From a virus (taxonomy: Duplodnaviria; Caudoviricetes): 31,867 nucleotides of DNA. The stretch spans positions 1-31,867 of IMG/VR virus record IMGVR_UViG_3300020464_000013. One strand, written 5' to 3'. Positions 5,248-31,867 of the stretch are shown one piece after another. Numbering within the stretch: the first letter of the stretch is position 1; each line of letters opens with the position of its first letter. Made by a program: the position numbers and the translations under genes. The notes below the pieces were generated by a model. That model was not told the origin of the DNA. It saw nothing but the letters and a program-made list of their open reading frames with translations, and ran no database searches.

Positions 5248-5411
5248 TCAAAATTATATCGAGCACGCAAAGTACGCTCGTTATCTTCAGCCAAGATACG
5301 TGCCTTGCATTTCTTGCAACGACACTCACCAATTAAATACTTAGCTAACGTTCCATGTTTTTTGAAGTCGCCCTTGTCCCACCTAATGTGACCAAGGTCG
5401 TCTACAAACAT
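5244..5411 (-). CDS. Small HGT..Y..CRCxxC Zn-binding protein (55 aa; not in ORF track)
   Basis: Manual translation MFVDDLGHIRWDKGDFKKHGTLAKYLIGECRCKKCKARILAEDNERTLRARYNFD; TAATG-coupled to upstream ORF; stop overlaps the exonuclease stop. Confidence 0.75.
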   Translation of the reverse strand: MFVDDLGHIRWDKGDFKKHGTLAKYLIGECRCKKCKARILAEDNERTLRARYNFD

Positions 5412-5581
5412 TAGTAATCTTCAGGATTAGACGCTTCATCCTTGAAGATGGTAGCCATACGCAGAGCTTCTTCTTTAGTTCTATACCACTCACGCATCTG
5501 GCTGTCACATATCACTGCATACCCCGGAAGACTAAGACCTGCTCCCAATCGTGCAACTACTTTTTCTACTTTTACATTCAT
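5411..5581 (-). CDS. Hypothetical protein (56 aa; not in ORF track)
   Basis: MNVKVEKVVARLGAGLSLPGYAVICDSQMREWYRTKEEALRMATIFKDEASNPEDY; RBS GGAGAAAAG upstream. Confidence 0.75.
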   Translation of the reverse strand: MNVKVEKVVARLGAGLSLPGYAVICDSQMREWYRTKEEALRMATIFKDEASNPEDY

Positions 5582-5610
5582 CGCTTTTCTCCAATCACGA
5601 TGTCCCTTTT

Positions 5611-5619
5611 ATTTTACCA
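5611..5619 (-). promoter_or_regulatory. Extended -10 promoter TGgTAAAAT
   Basis: Reverse complement of attttacca; about 30 nt upstream of ATG 5581. Confidence 0.6.
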
Positions 5620-5639
5620 CGCTAGGTGAGAATTAGGGC

Positions 5640-5679
5640 GGGATGGTGAGGTAGAAAGGAGAAAACACCCCCACATCCC
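5640..5679 (-). ncRNA. Hairpin with anti-SD loop (terminator and/or sRNA)
   Basis: GGGAUG-UGGGG.../...CCUCA-C-CAUCCC stem with a G-U pair on minus; loop contains UUUUCUCCUUUCU. Confidence 0.5.
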
Positions 5680-5700
5680 ATCACCGGCAATGCAGACCGG

Positions 5701-6090
5701 CTAGCCCTTAGACCTTAGTTGCTCCTTTAACTCTCTCAATCGACGTACATTCTCTTCGATTGAAAGCGACTCCTTTTTATTCAACGCTAACGCTTGCTTA
5801 GTCTTGACAGCATCGTCAATGTTACACACTCTAGCCCCACTTTCCTCAGCGTTTCTCCTCAACGCTGTCTCAAACGCAGCTTCAGTATAACCCCACGTAA
5901 TGTTCAATGCGTTATAACACTCATCAATAGTCCAACCTGCGGCATGTGCAGTCTCAACAATATGACGTATCCGTGCAGGCTTAACACTTATAGGTTTCTT
6001 GGCAAGAGTTTTCCACCAAGCATTTAACATCTCAGTTAGATCAGTAAAAACTTGTACTCGTTGCACTTCCATCTTTATCACTTTGCCCAT
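5701..6090 (-). CDS. Hypothetical protein
   Basis: 129 aa ORF, RBS AAAGGAGAGG, C-terminal coiled coil. Confidence 0.75.
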   Translation of the reverse strand: MGKVIKMEVQRVQVFTDLTEMLNAWWKTLAKKPISVKPARIRHIVETAHAAGWTIDECYNALNITWGYTEAAFETALRRNAEESGARVCNIDDAVKTKQALALNKKESLSIEENVRRLRELKEQLRSKG

Positions 6091-6430
6091 GTATCCTCTC
6101 CTTTATTAACTGTGCAAAGTTATGCAATTCCATAACGACGTACGCTCCTCCTGTCCCAAAATTACGTCGCTTTACAATAGCTGCCCCGAAGACAGCTTCA
6201 GCATTAACTCTTTCTTGCTCTGTCTCTTTCATAATTTGAGACAAAGATGAGAGAGCATCCTTTCTATTCTTACATTCAAATACAAATTCAGGTAAGTCTA
6301 GACAACGAATGTCCCCTACATCTTTAGTCCCAACAAGAGGTAACCGCATAAACTCAGACTTCGTATAGCTTTGCAAATACCTAACACACTCAGTCTCCCA
6401 AGCGGTCCCCTTCTGTTTAGCTTTACTCAT
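6041..6430 (-). CDS. Holliday junction resolvase, Hjc-like PD-(D/E)xK
   Basis: KQKGTAWE, DVGDI and FECKN motifs. Confidence 0.8.
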   Translation of the reverse strand: MSKAKQKGTAWETECVRYLQSYTKSEFMRLPLVGTKDVGDIRCLDLPEFVFECKNRKDALSSLSQIMKETEQERVNAEAVFGAAIVKRRNFGTGGAYVVMELHNFAQLIKERIHGQSDKDGSATSTSFY

Positions 6431-7509: not shown

Positions 7510-8287
7510 TTGTCTCCTTTATTACAAGATCGATTACATCAACAATGTTTATGTCACCGTGCTGTTCGCAGATGTCGTAGTACGGGCAGTAATTACATTC
7601 CCAAGGAATTTCTGTTCCCCAATACGACCGCAAACCTTCTGGTATAACACCAGTATTCAGGTAGCTTTTAGCCATACGTGCATGGTCTTCTAAGAAATAT
7701 GTAGTAGCTACATTGATTGACGTTCCGCTTTCATCAAACGATTCGTAGATGTCATATAGCCACTCGACCATATCTCCTGCACGAGCGCTGTCTTTCCAAC
7801 GTCCCGGCGTAGCATCAGTACAAATGTAAACCAAATGTATTTTTGTTACACCTAACGCTAAAGCATACGCACATGCTTGAAACAAGTGTTCTTCTTTAGG
7901 TCCTTCGTTACGTGCTTTACGAAACCCATAGTTCCGCATCGTTTTAATTTCTAAAACGGTGTGATCGTAGACCCCATCAGCATGACCAGACGTTAAACAC
8001 TCAGGAATACTGACTTCAACTTCACACTCAAAGTTAGGCACCCGTTCCTTAAACGCTGTTTGTACATGCCCATGCATAGTGTTGCCTATTTCTTTAGCAA
8101 CAAACCCATTCACAGCATTAGGACCTGCCTCTATACGAGGCACTCCCATGCCATCGAATACCTGTTTGCGTGCACACGTAGTGACATTAGATATCCGAAG
8201 AAACGACCCATCAGCAGTCGGTTTATTCGCAGGATGACGTATGTATTCTTCCAGCACACTTTGCGCTGGACCCGTTTCGTACTGCAT
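7493..8287 (-). CDS. Cas4-like PD-(D/E)xK exonuclease with 4-Cys cluster
   Basis: TCARK...GHADG...EIKT...QACAY...ECNYCPYYDIC. Confidence 0.85.
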   Translation of the reverse strand: MQYETGPAQSVLEEYIRHPANKPTADGSFLRISNVTTCARKQVFDGMGVPRIEAGPNAVNGFVAKEIGNTMHGHVQTAFKERVPNFECEVEVSIPECLTSGHADGVYDHTVLEIKTMRNYGFRKARNEGPKEEHLFQACAYALALGVTKIHLVYICTDATPGRWKDSARAGDMVEWLYDIYESFDESGTSINVATTYFLEDHARMAKSYLNTGVIPEGLRSYWGTEIPWECNYCPYYDICEQHGDINIVDVIDLVIKETNESVK

Positions 8288-9081: not shown

Positions 9082-9107
9082 TTCTTTTCTCCTTTATTAT
9101 GAGTTCT

Positions 9108-10353: not shown

Positions 10354-10381
10354 GTATTTTCCCTTTCATATTGAGATCTTC

Positions 10382-10423
10382 GGGAGAGAGGACTTTGTTT
10401 ATGGGAACGACGTCCCCTCTCCC
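10382..10423 (-). promoter_or_regulatory. 5' leader hairpin
   Basis: GGGAGAGGGGAC/GUCCUCUCUCCC 12-bp stem (G-U on minus) with 18-nt loop. Confidence 0.55.
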
Positions 10424-10446: not shown

Positions 10447-10455
10447 ATTATACCA
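10447..10455 (-). promoter_or_regulatory. Consensus extended -10 promoter TGgTATAAT
   Basis: Reverse complement of attatacca; preceded by inverted repeat ATAAACACAA/TTGTGTTTAT (10459-10492). Confidence 0.75.
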
Positions 10456-11028: not shown

Positions 11029-11196
11029 ATGCGACACGACAAGCGAATCGCATGTTTAAGGATACCGTGAAAAGCGATCCGGCACCCGAACCTAGGCGGA
11101 CGTGGCGAGGGGGGGCTGACACCACGTCCACCTTGATACCACACATAAGCGGTATCTAAGGAAGCCTACCCTCCGAAGAGGATAGACAACCTTAGA
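11029..11196 (-). ncRNA. Multi-hairpin structured RNA (leader or sRNA)
   Basis: Five consecutive stems, a cUUCGg tetraloop and many G-U pairs that work only on minus. Confidence 0.65.
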
Positions 11197-11918: not shown

Positions 11919-12080
11919 CTAGGCATCAGCACACACCGTCCACTCACCAGTACGCTCAAAGAAAGCTATGACCTTGGAACAAGCCTCGGGCACGCCTAAC
12001 CAGCAGCTTTCACACTCACCGATTACACACGCATGGCAGCGACCACAGGTGCAGTGGTACTCGTAAGTCTCGTCTTGCAT
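11919..12080 (-). CDS. Small Cys-rich protein (53 aa; not in ORF track)
   Basis: MQDETYEYHCTCGRCHACVIGECESCWLGVPEACSKVIAFFERTGEWTVCADA; GGAGG RBS, TAATG coupling. Confidence 0.7.
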   Translation of the reverse strand: MQDETYEYHCTCGRCHACVIGECESCWLGVPEACSKVIAFFERTGEWTVCADA

Positions 12081-12319
12081 TACTGGGCCTCCATGTCACG
12101 GTAAACGATGTCAGTCTTGATCGAACCTTTGATGACGTTGTTCCCATAGTTCGGCGTACTGCCGTAGCTTTCACGGAGTTTCGCTTGTAGATCCGCAGTT
12201 TTCTTGCGGCCTGAGTCGTCCAACTTGGTGACTCGGGACTTCCAAGACTGAGTGAGTTCGGAAGCTCCCTTCAGTTCAATCCATTCGGCCCATGTGGACC
12301 GAAGCATTCTGGTTCGCAC
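12080..12319 (-). CDS. First gene of the early arm, hypothetical
   Basis: GTG start with AAAGGAGAAA RBS. Confidence 0.75.
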   Translation of the reverse strand: MRTRMLRSTWAEWIELKGASELTQSWKSRVTKLDDSGRKKTADLQAKLRESYGSTPNYGNNVIKGSIKTDIVYRDMEAQ

Positions 12320-12349
12320 AATTTCTCCTTTGCTTTGTTATTTGACAGA

Positions 12350-12515: not shown

Positions 12516-13214
12516 GGCGGCAAATCACAACGCAAAGGAAACATTGTGATCAGAAGGCTAAGTGCCACAGGGGTTGAATGGACTGACGGGAGCAGCCGAA
12601 CAGAGCGAAGGCTTGGACGTAACGAGGCACGTTGGGCGGCGAAGGACACAAGAAAACGGTGGAGATACAAGCCACCACTTGACACTTCCGCAGCACGGCG
12701 CCGAACAACGGGAACAATGTTAACAAAGGAAGACGACTGGCATCGAGCACCGAGACATGGAGGAACAGCAATGCCGAGACTCAGTGCCACAAACACAGGA
12801 ACAGCCACAGCAAACAAGAGGTACACCACCCCAACACTTTAGTCACACCGGGGGTTAGTGGGTGAACTCCACTTGTTTGGTCAGCAACGGGTGATGTGCC
12901 GAACCCCACCCCTTATATGTACGTGATTATCAGTGTTTTGGTGTGTTTGGTTCACTGTTTTGGGTGTGTGGTTTGTTTGTTTGGTGTTTGGTTGGTTATG
13001 GCCTTGGATTCCTCCGAGTGTTGAGGCCTCTCTTGCCTTGACCTAGCCGTGCTGTGCTGGTCTGCTCCGTGCCCCCCGGTTTGTGTTGGGCCGTCGTGTC
13101 TGGACACGGAGTCAGATGCCCCTCTGACGGGCGATCGAACCGTTGTTAGCGGCTGGTGCGGTTGTACTGTATCATTGGATTGTTGGGGGTGGGCACTTTT
13201 TTAAGGATTTGTTT

Positions 13215-25968: not shown

Positions 25969-27267
25969 ATGCCACCGTGGTTAAATAATTTTTTAAATGG
26001 GCTTGATCCTAGAGAAATGCTAATTATAAATCGTTTGTTTCTTAACAACGAAAACACACGGGAGCTTACTGAACGCATAGCGGACGAAACGCCTCGTGAG
26101 GGAGAAGAATTAGTAATTGATGCAGAAGCTGAAGATGAGTTAAAAACTGTAATTCTTGAACGAGAAGCAGAAAAAATTGAAGGCCCTATAACAGAAGCTG
26201 ACAAAGCTGAAATTGCTGCAAAAGTAGATGTTTCTGTTGATGATGCTCGGATTGCTGCTTTAGGAACTGAACAGCAACAAGCGGTAGGAACTGAGGCCCG
26301 AGAAATGGGTTTGCCTGATCCTTCAGGAAGTACAACGTGGCTTGTTAATGATGCGTATTTAAGCGCTTCTATGGACCCTGTTACTTTTTCGTTTACAACG
26401 AATGTTGTTCCTTATGGCAAAGGAACTTCTGGTCAATTTATGCGTGGTTCCCAAGATTTTCCGGGGATGCTTGGTACAACAGACATACAATTTTATGCAG
26501 CACGACCAAAAGTAGAAGGCGGTGGTCGAGGCGCTACACAAACTCCTTCGCCTACACAGTTGTCGTGGACTTACGATCAACGCAAATTAACAAATAATTA
26601 TGAGTTTATTTCTGTTAAAGAAACTGATGTGCCGTTTACTGTTAGCGACGCAATGGGGATTTACGATAAACAAGATGAACAAGGCAAACGTTTAATTGCA
26701 CAAGGTCTTGCTTTAGGCGATAACTCTAATGGTTCTTATACGTTTAAAGTTTTACAAAACGAAATGTTTACTAATCCTGAAGCTATTTATGATCGGGATG
26801 TTGTAGAAGCAGCAATTATGGAAATGAGTAATGCTGCTAGTACTAGAGCAAGATTTTTAGATAAAGGGTTTGCTGACTTAGGAGATCGTTTTAATCCAAC
26901 AACTGTGTTAGATAACCCTGATTCTTTAGGCTCGTTTCAAGATGATCTTTTTGATATGGCTGTTAACGCTAATCTTATTACTCAAATTACAGCAGACTAT
27001 GGGCGTGAACTAGCTGAACGAGCTTTGTCTAACATTACTGGATTACAAGATTTTTCTGGTTTTGCTGATTTAGTTGAAACGTGGACATCAGATATTCAAC
27101 AACAAAATATGGGGCGGTCGTTATCAGCGGCAGAAATACAAGCAGGGTTTGAAACTCGTATTGAAAATGAACCTATGTTGGAAGGCGCTATAGAAGCAAG
27201 CAATAAGTTAGTAGCGCAACAAGCATTAGGACGAGCTATTAAACGTGCGAATGCGAGGACTGCATAA
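25969..27267 (+). CDS. Probable internal virion protein
   Basis: 432 aa ORF; synteny only. Confidence 0.5.
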   Translation: MPPWLNNFLNGLDPREMLIINRLFLNNENTRELTERIADETPREGEELVIDAEAEDELKTVILEREAEKIEGPITEADKAEIAAKVDVSVDDARIAALGTEQQQAVGTEAREMGLPDPSGSTTWLVNDAYLSASMDPVTFSFTTNVVPYGKGTSGQFMRGSQDFPGMLGTTDIQFYAARPKVEGGGRGATQTPSPTQLSWTYDQRKLTNNYEFISVKETDVPFTVSDAMGIYDKQDEQGKRLIAQGLALGDNSNGSYTFKVLQNEMFTNPEAIYDRDVVEAAIMEMSNAASTRARFLDKGFADLGDRFNPTTVLDNPDSLGSFQDDLFDMAVNANLITQITADYGRELAERALSNITGLQDFSGFADLVETWTSDIQQQNMGRSLSAAEIQAGFETRIENEPMLEGAIEASNKLVAQQALGRAIKRANARTA

Positions 27268-28973
27268 TGGGACAACGTTTACAAATATCGCCTGAAACTT
27301 TAAGAGATGCTTTAGCTGCCGAAGGTTTAGACAACGAAGAAATTCGTAATCTTTTAGCTATTGCTAGAGGAGAATCTACTTACTTTTTTAATTCAGTAAA
27401 TCAAAACGCAAAGTCAGGTGATGATTCTTGGGGTCTTTTTCAAATTAACTTTAGAAAACCTGCTGGGGGAAAAAGCCGTGCAAATCAATTAGGAATACCT
27501 ATTACCGCAGCTTTTGATGGTGAAAAAGATTTGCCTTCAGAAAAAGATCTTGCAGATTATTTTTTGTTAGAAAAAAGTGGTGATGGATGGCTTGTACAAG
27601 ATGGCGTTACTGAAGAAGAGTTAATAAAACGGAACATTGATGCGCTAGCCATTATGTGGACCAATTTATCAAATGTGCGAAATAGCAGTAGACCTTTTAG
27701 TCCTTGGTCTGTGCACCCAGATAGCGAAGCATATCGAAAAGCTAGTAGAAAAGGTTTAACTGACCACGAAAATAAATGGGAAAAAAATTCGACGTTTGTT
27801 AATGAACGTTTTAGTGAGTTAGGAAACGATGGGAATACAGTTTCTGCGTCTGGACCTAGTGAACGTGAAATTCAGCTTGAAAATGAATTTGAAGCAAATA
27901 GAGGTAACCCGTTTAGACAACGGCAAATCATTAATGAAATTTTGTTAGAACGTAACCGAGAAGGTTACCCAAATCCACCGGCTGTTTCTAGTGCAGAAAA
28001 AATTGCTACAGAACAAGGGTTAATTGATGGTGATTCACAACGTGTTATAAACCCTGAATACACACAAGATTACGAGTTTTTGCGTGATAATCCAGACGCT
28101 GAAGTTGAGTTTGCTGGACAAACATTTAACATTATTGATCTTATAGAAGCTGAACGTGATCGTGAATTAGGCAATTTAGTTGACGCTGGTTTTTATTTTG
28201 ATCCTAGTGATCCACGTTATGACGCTTGGGTTCAAGGGCTATACGAACAAACAGAACATTATGCTAACAGTGCACAAGGTCGAGCCGATAGAGAAAACAA
28301 CTGGTTTAAATCTGGAGAAGGCGACGAGTTTACTGGCCGCCGTTTAGATTTAATAGAAGATACTGTTACACGAGTTGAACTGTTGTTCGATGATGCAGGA
28401 ATTATTGCGACTGAAACAGAAATTTTAGAGTTTGCTCGTGATGCTTGGCTTGCAGGTTGGTCTGATGACGCTATAAGAGATGAATTGTCTGATCGTGAAG
28501 ACATGGAGTTTGGGGCAGATGCTCCTCTTGCTAGCGAAATAAATGCTACACGACAAGACATTCGTAGTAAGTACCGTCAATATTTAGTTGACGCTGATCC
28601 TGATGTTATCGCTGAACAAAACAGACGATTGTTTCGTGGAGAAACAACTCTTGAAAATATAGAAGCTGGTTTAGCTTCGCAATCAGCAGATTTATACCCT
28701 GCTTTTGCAGATCGTATTGAAGCAGGCAGAACACCTTTAGATATATTGGGTAGTTATAGCAACATATTTAGAGGTGTTATGGGTTATTCCCCTCAATGGG
28801 ATGGGACTCATATGTCAATGGGAATAGATATGTTAAAAGACGGAAACATAACTGGCGCTAATTTTGCTACGTTTTTGCGTTCTACTGATGAGTACGACAT
28901 GACTCCAAACGCTATTAATAATGCCTATTCATTAATAAACACTATTGGGGAAACTATGGGAGTGATGCCGTAA
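27267..28973 (+). CDS. Virion protein with N-terminal lysozyme-like / lytic transglycosylase domain
   Basis: AIARGES (catalytic Glu), SWGLFQIN, FSPWS. Confidence 0.8.
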   Translation: MGQRLQISPETLRDALAAEGLDNEEIRNLLAIARGESTYFFNSVNQNAKSGDDSWGLFQINFRKPAGGKSRANQLGIPITAAFDGEKDLPSEKDLADYFLLEKSGDGWLVQDGVTEEELIKRNIDALAIMWTNLSNVRNSSRPFSPWSVHPDSEAYRKASRKGLTDHENKWEKNSTFVNERFSELGNDGNTVSASGPSEREIQLENEFEANRGNPFRQRQIINEILLERNREGYPNPPAVSSAEKIATEQGLIDGDSQRVINPEYTQDYEFLRDNPDAEVEFAGQTFNIIDLIEAERDRELGNLVDAGFYFDPSDPRYDAWVQGLYEQTEHYANSAQGRADRENNWFKSGEGDEFTGRRLDLIEDTVTRVELLFDDAGIIATETEILEFARDAWLAGWSDDAIRDELSDREDMEFGADAPLASEINATRQDIRSKYRQYLVDADPDVIAEQNRRLFRGETTLENIEAGLASQSADLYPAFADRIEAGRTPLDILGSYSNIFRGVMGYSPQWDGTHMSMGIDMLKDGNITGANFATFLRSTDEYDMTPNAINNAYSLINTIGETMGVMP

Positions 28974-30199
28974 TGGTTCTCGAAAATTATGACACTGGTG
29001 TAACCCGTAGACTAGGTAACGAAGACGACCGTAGAGAAGCACGGTTAAACGTTGATCCAACAGGCACACGCTTTGATGTAGAAACTAATCAATGGTCTGA
29101 AACGTTTATGCCTGAGTACATTGATCGAGTTTACGGAGAAGGTGGAGGTTATTACGCACCTCAAAGAAGAGGTGAAACGTTTGGAGCAGACGATTACTGG
29201 ACAGACACTAAAGAAGCATTTGGTGACACAGGGTACGCCAGCCCGTTTGGAATGCCAGTAGAAGGTCCCGGTAAACCCCCTGAATCTACAGTAAAACGTC
29301 CAGCACAAAGTGATTCGTACAAAGAGTATTTAGCGTTTTTAAAAGCCCAAGGTATAGATGGCGCTAAATCAGTAATGAAAGGTTTTTTAAACCAATTTGG
29401 TTTACAAGGTCTAACTGATTGGGCAATGGGAATGGCTGAACAAGGTTTAAGTGGCGAAGCAATCGTTACTGAATTGCGTTATGGCACCGATGCTAATGTT
29501 CGCGCAATTTACGATAAAGCGTTTCCTGCTATGAAAGCACGTCGTGAGGCAGGTTTTACGGCAATTACTGAAGGCGAATATTTACAGTTAGGTCGTGGTT
29601 ATTCTCAAATAGCTGCTGCCGCAGGCATTAGCCCAGACTTTTTGCAAGGTGCAGGTAAAACTGTAAAAGAAGATGGGGTAACTGCTTTAATAGCTGGCGA
29701 TGTTTCTTTGTCAGAATGGCGTTCTCGTGTAGCTACTGCTGAAGAAGCAGCTAATACAGCAAGCCCTGAAGTAAAAGCTATTTTAGAATCTCGGTATGGT
29801 TTTTCGTCAGGTGATCTTGTTTCTGCGTTTCTTGATCCAACAAAAACAAAAAACATTGTTGAAGCAAGGCGTCAAGTAGGTGCTGCTACGTTAGCTGGTG
29901 CAGCACAACAAGTTGTAGGTTCTACTCTTAGCGCAACTGCATCTGAAGCATTGTTTAATCAAGACGTACAAGAACGAGAAATAGTTCAAGCATTGTCGCC
30001 GTTAGGTGGGTTAACAGAAGCAACACTAACTAGCGAAGGCATGACAGCAGATCAACTTGCTGCTGGCAGATTTGGTAATGCTATGGGAAGAAAAGAATTC
30101 CAACGCAATTTGCAAGGGCGTGTAGCAGACTTTGATCGAAGTGCAGGCATAGCTATTAGTAGTCAAGGCGCTTACGGTTTAGGTACAGCCGACGCATAA
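28973..30199 (+). CDS. Probable internal virion protein
   Basis: 408 aa, Ala/Gly-rich helical; TAATG coupling. Confidence 0.5.
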   Translation: MVLENYDTGVTRRLGNEDDRREARLNVDPTGTRFDVETNQWSETFMPEYIDRVYGEGGGYYAPQRRGETFGADDYWTDTKEAFGDTGYASPFGMPVEGPGKPPESTVKRPAQSDSYKEYLAFLKAQGIDGAKSVMKGFLNQFGLQGLTDWAMGMAEQGLSGEAIVTELRYGTDANVRAIYDKAFPAMKARREAGFTAITEGEYLQLGRGYSQIAAAAGISPDFLQGAGKTVKEDGVTALIAGDVSLSEWRSRVATAEEAANTASPEVKAILESRYGFSSGDLVSAFLDPTKTKNIVEARRQVGAATLAGAAQQVVGSTLSATASEALFNQDVQEREIVQALSPLGGLTEATLTSEGMTADQLAAGRFGNAMGRKEFQRNLQGRVADFDRSAGIAISSQGAYGLGTADA

Positions 30200-30202
30200 G
30201 AC

Positions 30203-30233
30203 TTGACAATTAGTATTAATTGTTTGCTATACT
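30203..30233 (+). promoter_or_regulatory. Promoter TTGACA-N19-TATACT with TGn extension
   Basis: TTGACA 30203-30208, TGC 30225-30227, TATACT 30228-30233. Confidence 0.75.
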
Positions 30234-30326
30234 AATTACTGGTTGGCCCCAAATGGGTGAGCTAACTAAACCCCTCCATCTAAGGTTCCACCGCCGAAGA
30301 TGCGTTACAGGATAGGTGAGTGACAT

Positions 30327-30803
30327 ATGACAGATTCCGACTCCACTAATTTTGGTGAAAGCGGTGCTGCCAGTACATCTGAATCTGAGCCGAACTTTCG
30401 TCGGAAGTTAGAAAACCGTGCGACAAGCGCTGAAGCTAGAGCTGAAGTTGCTGAAGCAAAGTTAGCTTCTTACGAACGTCAAGATACTTTCCGTTCTGCG
30501 GGAATTGATCTTAACGATCCACGAGTAAAGTATTTCGTGAAAGGCTATGAAGGCGAACTCGACGTTGATGCAATCCGTATGGAAGCTGAAGCTGCTGGGT
30601 TTTTAAATAATGAAATAGAACCTTCAAGCCAATTAGTTGCTAACGATGCGTTAGTAGCTGAACAACGAATACAAGCTGCTGGAGAAGGCGGAGATCCAGT
30701 GTCACCTACTAATCTTGACGCTCAAATTAGGGCAACAACTGACCAAGATCAGTTACGAGCTTTGATGGAAAGTCAAGGAATTCATTGGGGCGCATCAGCC
30801 TAA
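30327..30803 (+). CDS. Capsid scaffolding protein
   Basis: Acidic protein with coiled coil, directly upstream of the capsid gene; AGGTGAG RBS. Confidence 0.7.
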   Translation: MTDSDSTNFGESGAASTSESEPNFRRKLENRATSAEARAEVAEAKLASYERQDTFRSAGIDLNDPRVKYFVKGYEGELDVDAIRMEAEAAGFLNNEIEPSSQLVANDALVAEQRIQAAGEGGDPVSPTNLDAQIRATTDQDQLRALMESQGIHWGASA

Positions 30804-30839
30804 TTTTAATTATTGGAGTCCTCACCATAAGGACTTCAA

Positions 30840-31778
30840 GTGGCACAAACAACCACAACCACACTTGACGATCAGGTAAAAACGGCGTTCGATCAGGTTG
30901 CGTACTTTGCTTTACGTTCGCAGCCTTTGTTTGAAATGGTCGCTGATGTCAGGTCAACTGCCCAGAGCCATAACGGTTCTGGCGTACAATTCACGTTTTA
31001 CGCTGACATGGCGCAGGCAACGAGTGCTCTTACTGAAGGCACTGACGTTACCGCTGTTGCGTTGACAGACAGCGCTGTAACCGTAACTCTTGCAGAGTAC
31101 GGTAACGCTGTTATCACTACCGCCAAGGTGCGTGGAACATCTTTCCTAAACGTAGACGCTGATGCGGCCAACATTGTTGGTTATAACATGGCTGACTCGA
31201 TGGACAAAATCGTTTCTGATGTCGCTAACGGCGGCACCAACGTAACGCATGTCGGTCAATCAAGCCGTGGCGCTATCACAGCAGGCAACGTTTACACCGC
31301 TGCTGAAGGTCGTAAAGCTGTTGCACAGCTTCGTGGCCGCAACGCTCCGGGCTGGGAAAACGGTAACTATATGGCAGTCATTCACCCTGACGTTTCCTAC
31401 GATCTTCGTGGAGACACAGCGGTAACTGACGTTATCCAGTACCAAATCCAGCAAGACGGCGCACCCGTTCGTGCAGGTTCAATCGGAACATTCAATGGCA
31501 TCATGTACATTGAAAACCCCCGTGCAGGACTTATCGAAGACGGTGGCGCTAGCAACGTCGATGTATACCAGACCTTGATTTGCGGACGCCAAGCTGTTGC
31601 AAAAGCATTCAGCCGTGCACCGGGATTTGGGCCTGAGCCAAGCATCGTTGTTGGTCCAGTAACTGACAGTCTTCGTCGGTTTAACCCAATTGGTTGGTAC
31701 CACCTTGTTGGCTATGGCCGCTTCCGTGAAGCGTGCATGCAACGAGTGGAATCATCCTCCAGCATTGGAGCTAACTAA
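30840..31778 (+). CDS. Major capsid protein (N4-gp56-like family)
   Basis: TLAEYGN, YMAVIHPDVSYDLR, GSIGTFNGIMYIE, DSLRRFNPIGW motifs. Confidence 0.9.
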   Translation: MAQTTTTTLDDQVKTAFDQVAYFALRSQPLFEMVADVRSTAQSHNGSGVQFTFYADMAQATSALTEGTDVTAVALTDSAVTVTLAEYGNAVITTAKVRGTSFLNVDADAANIVGYNMADSMDKIVSDVANGGTNVTHVGQSSRGAITAGNVYTAAEGRKAVAQLRGRNAPGWENGNYMAVIHPDVSYDLRGDTAVTDVIQYQIQQDGAPVRAGSIGTFNGIMYIENPRAGLIEDGGASNVDVYQTLICGRQAVAKAFSRAPGFGPEPSIVVGPVTDSLRRFNPIGWYHLVGYGRFREACMQRVESSSSIGAN

Positions 31779-31793
31779 TAGTTAGTTTCTAAC

Positions 31794-31843
31794 AGGAGTA
31801 GGGGGCCGGGTTTTTCCCCCTTTCCCCGGTCCCCTACACTCCT
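31794..31843 (+). terminator. GC-rich hairpin after the capsid gene with pyrimidine loop
   Basis: GUAGGGGGCCGGG/CCCGGUCCCCUAC stem plus AGGAG/CUCCU; loop UUUUUCCCCCUUUC; no U tail. Confidence 0.6.
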
Positions 31844-31844
31844 C

Positions 31845-31863
31845 TGCTATCATTTAAATCATG
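31845..31863 (+). promoter_or_regulatory. Extended -10 TGcTATCAT with ATG 7 nt downstream (leaderless start of a truncated gene)
   Basis: TATCAT 31848-31853, ATG 31861, no SD in between. Confidence 0.55.
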
Positions 31864-31867
31864 CCTA

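Follow-up and report, generated by a model that had tools for sequence, protein, structure and literature searches.

Does a hairpin that closes the replication operon of a phage, and that exposes in its loop the complement of a Shine-Dalgarno (SD) sequence, act on the ribosome-binding sites (RBSs) of the very operon whose message it ends? In this work we address this question for the window, the whole of a 31.9-kb phage contig (31,867 nucleotides), in which a leftward block running from 12319 to 5244 encodes a RusA-like resolvase, an SSB, an Erf/Rad52-like protein, a Cas4-like exonuclease and a DUF932 protein, and the terminase, virion and capsid genes form rightward blocks; the labels early (leftward) and late (rightward) were assigned from gene function alone. 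On balance, and with little more than even confidence, we favour the reading that the conserved hairpin acts as an RNA whose UCUCCUUUC loop covers early AAAGGAGA-type RBSs, damping early translation.

The host of this phage is likely actinobacterial. The best cellular matches of the SSB are from Acidimicrobiales, its top matches among annotated phages are actinophages, and one relative (1/5 related records) encodes two WhiB proteins. Two contigs of the window's phage family (L087 and L088, genome G001) were binned in one Dehalococcoidia MAG, which represents either a host link or mis-binning, and the host is therefore not settled. Two long imperfect inverted repeats, 12077-12227 versus 12628-12774 (40-45 nt, 76-80%), were also seen to flank the divergent control region.

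The operon-end hairpin and its conservation

The minus-strand hairpin proposed in a first-pass annotation folds as claimed, at -15.2 kcal/mol with a predicted loop at 5654-5665 (Table 1). Taken alone the fold is unremarkable (z = -1.67; 13/200 shuffles fold equally well), and it is the covariation and conservation of the stem across homologs that place the hairpin beyond chance. Among 29 distinct homologs, all 12 of the 12 stem pairs change on both sides and 99.4% of stem cells are paired, a value matched by none of 500 shuffles and compared with 47-55% in slid controls. The hairpin is predicted from folding to be the main arm of a three-way junction, in which the pairing of P1 is uninformative since this helix is nearly invariant; P2 is absent in some relatives and its loop is variable.

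Homologs were sought with a search model (R1) built from 31 of them, which match by construction. The element was found in 46/52 exonuclease loci of at least 75% identity, in 40/45 close Erf loci (the five misses have less than 2 kb of downstream sequence) and in 60/80 metagenome loci, three locus sets that overlap. Among the six exonuclease-set misses, two loci are cut short, two (L007 and L009) carry a hairpin in the same place with a different stem and the loop GUUCCUCUCUCC, and two (L016 and L017) are without the element. The model had no match in 20 distant Erf loci (L375-L394) or in exonuclease loci of at most 66% identity (L059-L086). Rfam returned no matches in the window, with no match to the 6C model at gathering score, and blastn of the element against annotated phages gave chance-level matches alone (E 0.3-4). 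Lack of loop conservation had been named beforehand as grounds for giving up the proposal; the loop core proved to be 90-100% conserved (alignment A1, columns 33-41) versus 48-97% for the 5' arm of the stem, and UCUCCUU is held by 43/46 distinct metagenome hairpins.

The stem also carries information on strand, with 33 G-U versus 2 A-C cells and greater stability of the minus strand in 31/31 rows, which together point to an RNA on the early strand. It could be argued that the element works instead as DNA, either as a single-strand priming hairpin or as an upstream promoter element, or else as a plus-strand RBS, and its location after the replication genes and ahead of an extended -10-like site would suit the former. 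However, the G-U cells favour one strand alone, whereas folds under DNA energies are weak and nearly equal for the two strands (-12.4 vs -11.6 kcal/mol); the spacing between hairpin and -10 site varies, and the two parts separate in relatives. Nor does the window offer a plus-strand start codon 5-13 nt after AGAAAGGAG. We rate these DNA and plus-strand readings as the least probable of those considered here, and regard the conserved, RNA-like character of the element, as judged from its sequence, as real.

In all 56 loci tabulated, the hairpin sits after the last early gene in the sense orientation (strand taken from the G-U asymmetry). The 129-aa gene of the window adjoins it in 32/56 loci, and elsewhere a different gene of 106 aa is mostly the last. 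Where the last early gene differs or the downstream module changes, the hairpin still follows whichever early gene comes last; in L040/L041, for example, the module stays with the 56-aa ORF and the hairpin lies 0.8 kb upstream with the last early gene. This constancy, despite insertions and a varying last gene, indicates that the element is a component of the early operon's 3' end. In an unaligned reading of L341, L346, L357 and L364, the 129-aa gene apparently has a C-terminal tail in common with the 106-aa gene, which suggests fusion by deletion.

Table 1. Features of the window discussed in the text
Feature	Coordinates	Strand	Basis or remark
Main hairpin P3	5640..5679	-	Fold; covariation of 12/12 pairs; G-U asymmetry
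Predicted open loop	5654..5665	-	Conserved core UCUCCUUUC at 5654-5662
Predicted three-way junction P1+P2+P3	5635..5708	-	Fold, -32.1 kcal/mol
Closing helix P1	5704-5708 with 5635-5639	-	100% paired, nearly invariant
Small hairpin P2	5683-5701	-	91% paired; 2/6 pairs compensatory (weak covariation)
Last early/replication-operon gene, 129 aa, no family match	5701..6090	-	Stop codon within the 5635-5708 element
RBS AAAGGAGA of the 129-aa gene	6097..6104	-	-14.8 kcal/mol, lowest of 38 start regions
RBS AAAGGAGA of the Erf/Rad52-like annealing-protein gene, candidate target	7513..7520	-	Predicted duplex
RBS AAAGGAGAAAA of the 87-aa gene	9085..9095	-	11-nt match, window-specific
RBS AAAGGAGAAA of the first leftward ORF (79 aa), candidate target	12322..12331	-	Predicted duplex
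RBS GGAGAAAA of the 56-aa ORF 5411-5581	5585..5592	-	Pairs solely with the 5' half of the loop
CAC-N5-GTG palindrome overlapping extended -10-like site TGGTAAAAT	5611..5628	-	Alignment A2; 43/47 loci
Extended -10-like site TGGTATAAT	10447..10455	-	Pattern scan, window alone
C/U-loop hairpin after the major capsid gene, loop UUUUUCCCCCUUUC, then TGCTATCAT and ATG	31794..31843	+	Model R1, E 1.6e-4; fold; alignment A4

Predicted loop pairing with ribosome-binding sites of phage and candidate host

All five RBS matches listed in the first-pass annotation are present at the places given (Table 1), and the loop that would meet them is predicted to be unpaired with a probability of 0.85-1.0. When the top of the stem frays, the RBS at 6097 becomes the best-pairing site of the window in predicted duplexes. 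At -9 kcal/mol or better, the loop is predicted to pair with 12/18 early and 1/20 late start regions (Fisher p = 8e-5), and with 39/376 candidate-host start regions (p = 7e-8 against early), the latter being a small sample of 20 stretches whose 376 starts were chosen for best SD, from a candidate and not an established host. The proposal of an operon-end hairpin whose conserved anti-SD loop matches early RBSs and spares late ones is thus upheld, as is the caveat attached to it that any anti-SD matches SD cores: the 16S tail itself pairs with 10/18 early and 1/20 late start regions, so that the difference between early and late starts is in large part simply one of which starts have an SD. The loop also ranks first among 715 permutations of its letters when scored on 13 early sites with an SD, a rank that is in part a trivial anti-SD match since these sites were preselected as SD-like.

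The loop has CUCCUUUCUA (10 nt) in common with the 3' end of Acidimicrobiales 16S rDNA, the tail of which is identical in 12/12 rDNA loci, and differs from that tail by a U in place of C. AAGGAG is followed by A in 85/100 early phage sites, compared with 7/44 candidate-host sites in which A follows [AG]GGAG, and the U of the loop accordingly fits the phage. The shared stretch, together with the capacity of U to pair with A or G, through which the loop can also cover AGGAGG, could be taken to mean that the element yields a stable sRNA from the 3' end, one that imitates the 16S tail and shuts down SD-led translation in the host, and 6C overexpression arrests mycobacterial growth via C-rich loops (PMC6486639, in part). 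We consider this role very improbable, although slightly less so than action as DNA. The loop fits the early sites of the phage itself and few of the candidate-host starts in the sample above, its strongest targets would be the phage's own early genes, and no promoter of its own was found. Host shut-off as the main role, one of two options originally offered, was accordingly set aside.

Late genes are SD-poor, in line with the earlier description, which had gone further in stating that they mostly use TAATG coupling. That part was overstated, as the TAATG overlap occurs in 6/19 late ORFs and also in 4/18 early ORFs; 12/19 late ORFs overlap or start within 3 nt of the previous stop. The complementarity had also been extended to A tracts flanking the match, and this turned out to be specific to the window: its closest relatives have UUUACUCUCC in place of the window's UUUUCUCC, a change involving two extra loop bases, and their homologous RBS is still AAAGGAGAAAA despite the altered loop. 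With a flank permutation among UCUCC phages giving p = 0.13, we rejected A-tract complementarity as a selected feature.

If the loop is tuned to the RBSs of each phage, loop and RBS style would be expected to shift together across lineages, and three contrasts bear on this, with start calls in the relatives made automatically and including some spurious ORFs. The two phages that have lost UCUCC (L356 and L370) have the lowest share of AAGGAG, 2/20 versus 98/215 sites (permutation p = 0.011, across the 22 phages with at least seven sites; 8/30 were dropped); these phages are sisters, so the contrast counts as one event, and in a three-taxon matrix the true pairing of loops with RBSs ranks third of six. 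Drift in A+T content was rejected as a cause of their shift, their loci being not more A+T-rich (0.472 and 0.478 vs 0.456-0.473). In the L664 clade, with the loop AUCUCC, GGAGA is followed by U in 7/16 sites compared with 10/137 in CUCUCC phages, and L346 provides a counter-example, with the loop AUCUCC and no RBS shift. The loop of the non-homologous hairpin of L009 ranks 5/462 on its own sites (mean -11.6) and 236/462 on those of the window (-7.9), while in the reverse comparison the window loop reaches -11.1 on its own sites and -10.0 on those of L009.

These contrasts (L356/L370, L664 and L009) hint at tuning to each phage's RBS style at the level of sequence. Phylogenetically controlled tests of loop against RBS were not significant. 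At the 129-aa gene, for example, the association of a CUCUCC loop with a GGAGAG RBS is concordant in 47/56 loci and resolves into just 2-5 independent pairs with support (p 0.5-1 by sign test). Of 30 gene families compared with the loop for co-variation, none was significant (lowest p 0.058 and 0.069), and the association at the 129-aa RBS failed tree control; no single dedicated target gene was found. We read this pattern as that of a general anti-SD, loosely tuned to RBS style and probably without a dedicated partner.

Transcription, termination and the capsid-operon hairpin

One RNA contig of 155 nt (depth 2.2; one sample, X1 and X2) covers 5523-5672, from the loop into the downstream ORF, and carries no strand or end information. 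No contig was found at the hairpin in X3 or X4, or on 26000-31867, the capsid region, in X1, X2, X3 or X5. The expression data are neither proof of an sRNA nor of its absence. No conserved promoter was found upstream of the hairpin, where TGnTAnnnT within 250 nt occurs in 10/47 loci at scattered places, so a free sRNA would need processing. The site at 10447-10455 may start a message of ~4.8 kb that ends at the hairpin.

Other early leader features were observed along this stretch. Between that site and ORF 10353, a hairpin at 10383-10423 (minus strand) pairs an SD-like sequence with a pyrimidine stretch. The motif GATCTCA/AACTCA (10369-10376, minus strand, in the window, and in relatives) recurs just upstream of several early RBSs and is possibly a shared leader or start-associated sequence. 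A strong hairpin with the C-rich loop UCAGCCCCCCCU lies between two early genes at ~11085-11145 (minus strand).

Downstream of the operon-end hairpin, the palindrome at 5611-5628 is invariant and precedes two small ORFs, the 56-aa ORF among them; it is a likely operator/promoter module. Its position raises the question of whether the hairpin is a cis insulator. In a read-through message its loop would then fold onto the RBS that lies 60 nt downstream and belongs to the 56-aa ORF, leaving translation of that ORF solely to messages from its own promoter. This RBS is the nearest one to the loop and forms a duplex of -12.6 kcal/mol, the module separates hairpin and ORF in 43/47 loci, and the RNA contig bridges the two. 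Yet the most invariant bases of the loop, CUUUC, meet mismatches at this RBS, displacement or absence of the module leaves the hairpin in place (L040/L648, the L664 clade and L007/L009), and nested folding, which excludes pseudoknots, gives essentially zero pairing between loop and RBS. An insulator is, in our judgement, improbable.

A more serious contender, albeit one we still think unlikely, is a terminator or 3'-stabilising hairpin whose C/U loop is recognised by a protein, of host or phage, such as a termination or decay factor, the RBS match being a by-product. The element resembles an intrinsic (Rho-independent) terminator in that a stop codon is closely followed by a strong G+C stem in the sense orientation, and differs from one in its large sequence-conserved loop and a U tract that is weak or absent in most of the clade. 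In the window, 4 U fall within the 8 nt after the stem and the hairpin is missing from the list produced by the terminator scan; at least five U follow the stem in 5/47 loci, by a rough tail call. The L664 clade, with 6/8 U, and the analogous hairpins of L080/L081, with clear U tracts, are more terminator-like. Terminators without a U tract exist in Actinobacteria, and the window hairpin could be an intrinsic terminator of this kind. Against termination, the one RNA contig spans from the loop to the downstream ORF, which is weak evidence.

The main support for a protein-read loop comes from the hairpin after the capsid gene. Both main operons end in a U4-5-C-(U/C)-CC-UUUC-loop hairpin followed by an extended -10-like site. 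The loop type of the capsid hairpin, UUUUCCCCCUUUC, is near-invariant, being kept in 57/57 distinct relatives, and is followed by an invariant TCTGCTA..T (extended -10-like site) with an ATG about 7 nt later, an arrangement from which the next gene is likely leaderless. This loop, similar to that of the early hairpin and even more invariant, fits early sites poorly (4/18 sites; rank 2847/3003), which leaves room for a protein-bound or terminator role. Its best pairings are with the starts at 8287, 10353 and 11005 and those of the terminase (14614) and exonuclease (4492). On the other hand, neither a first rank on the phage's own RBSs nor a shift with RBS style in L009 and the L664 clade would be expected of a loop that serves as a protein site, and a weak model match was found in just 9/121 Acidimicrobiales genomes (43 candidates scored per genome).

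Surveys of unrelated viral contigs bear on the same alternative. The anti-SD loop pattern between G4 and C4 occurs in ~600 stretches versus ~370 for a control of the same composition, and strong anti-SD hairpins number 22/107 against 12/107 in the control (p = 0.09, or 0.18 without the window's clade), an excess that we consider suggestive. These strong hairpins mostly follow a stop codon, 18/22 compared with 5/12 controls (p 0.026, or 0.056 without the window's clade), which favours a terminator or protein-read loop, and some unrelated anti-SD-like hairpins of distant phages carry U tracts. Unrelated stems with anti-SD-like loops after stop codons were seen at L007:5824-5863, L009:7089-7128 and L080:4965-5008, and further ones at L081:7035-7069, L088:1792-1801 and L084:6862 and 7109.

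Comparison with known RNAs and possible role

Several characterised RNAs share part of this design. The 6C sRNA of Actinobacteria has C-rich loops that pair with G-rich RBSs without a chaperone (PMC6486639, in part), and the phage element is alike in setting a pyrimidine-rich loop against purine-rich RBSs in what we infer to be an actinobacterial setting. However, 6C is chromosomal and carries C-run loops in two hairpins, whereas the phage element has one CUCC loop, UCUCCUUUC, at an operon end, with no Rfam match and no promoter of its own found. In Staphylococcus aureus, UCCCCUG in the 3'UTR of icaR mRNA pairs with the SD of its own message (PMC3868564, in part), likewise an anti-SD motif downstream of the coding region; there a single gene has one partner SD, proven by compensatory mutation, with a translation block and RNase III-dependent decay as the outcome, and here a polycistronic operon has many similar RBSs, the loop of a covarying hairpin carries the motif, and none of the RBSs stands out as its partner. 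RNAIII and RsaE pair in trans with the SDs of several mRNAs through a C-rich UCCC motif, and are described in the parts of that source covered here as Firmicute chromosomal RNAs with their own transcription units, unlike the phage element, which has no family match. The phage loop does have a conserved C/U-rich seed that is predicted to be unpaired, as in these RNAs. The element would thus be a 6C- or icaR-like anti-SD RNA in its predicted action, and a member of neither family.

Anti-SD loop hairpins at phage operon ends were not found described in the literature searched, of which supplementary tables may list the motif. The parts examined of PMC10690425 and PMC12197685 contain no such element, five motif strings were not found in 6/9 supplementary files of PMC10690425, and either this source or PMC5737381 may list an unnamed candidate.

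Long-range repression in Bacillus subtilis offers a further comparison. There, translation from an RBS is repressed by aSD-like sequences lying hundreds of nt away, pyrimidine-rich anti-SDs block translation and speed decay, and selection acts against such sequences (PMC12697547). Genes are purged of them, and enclosure by a helix takes away their effect, while the phage sequence is conserved and enclosed in a loop of 12-19 nt. Since anti-SDs are normally purged from bacterial messages, one kept near-invariant in an exposed loop throughout a phage clade is the mark of a selected function. In the same study, most of the effect of anti-RBS 8-mers disappeared when a pairing segment stood on either side of them, and such loss for a distant, enclosed aSD counts against a small loop acting in cis.

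Returning to the RNA that damps early translation, we envisage the early message as ending in a structure at its 3' end that is formed by the hairpin as part of the three-way junction. Its open UCUCCUUUC loop would pair with AAAGGAGA-type early RBSs and thereby reduce translation of replication genes, as a general anti-SD tuned to the RBS style of the phage and not as a one-gene antisense RNA. Pairing may take place in cis, where the upstream RBSs closer to the loop would be engaged, or in trans after a build-up of stable 3' fragments, two possibilities that we see as about evenly balanced, and late genes without such sites would escape. A broader extension, which we offer tentatively and think doubtful, is that operon-end hairpins of aquatic Actinobacteria phages present a copy of the 16S tail retuned to their own early RBSs, constituting a switch from early to late translation that needs no protein and has arisen anew, on unrelated stems, in many phage lineages. 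Under such a switch, accumulating stable 3' ends would silence SD-led early genes, and SD-poor, coupled or leaderless late genes would continue to be translated.

The natural variants of loop and RBS in the window, L009, L356 and L664 provide ready-made material for swaps, and the capsid-operon hairpin an internal control that would separate base pairing from protein binding. If the loop does pair with early RBSs, these phages would time their gene expression through an RNA cut from the same message combined with a division into early genes led by an SD and late genes poor in SDs.
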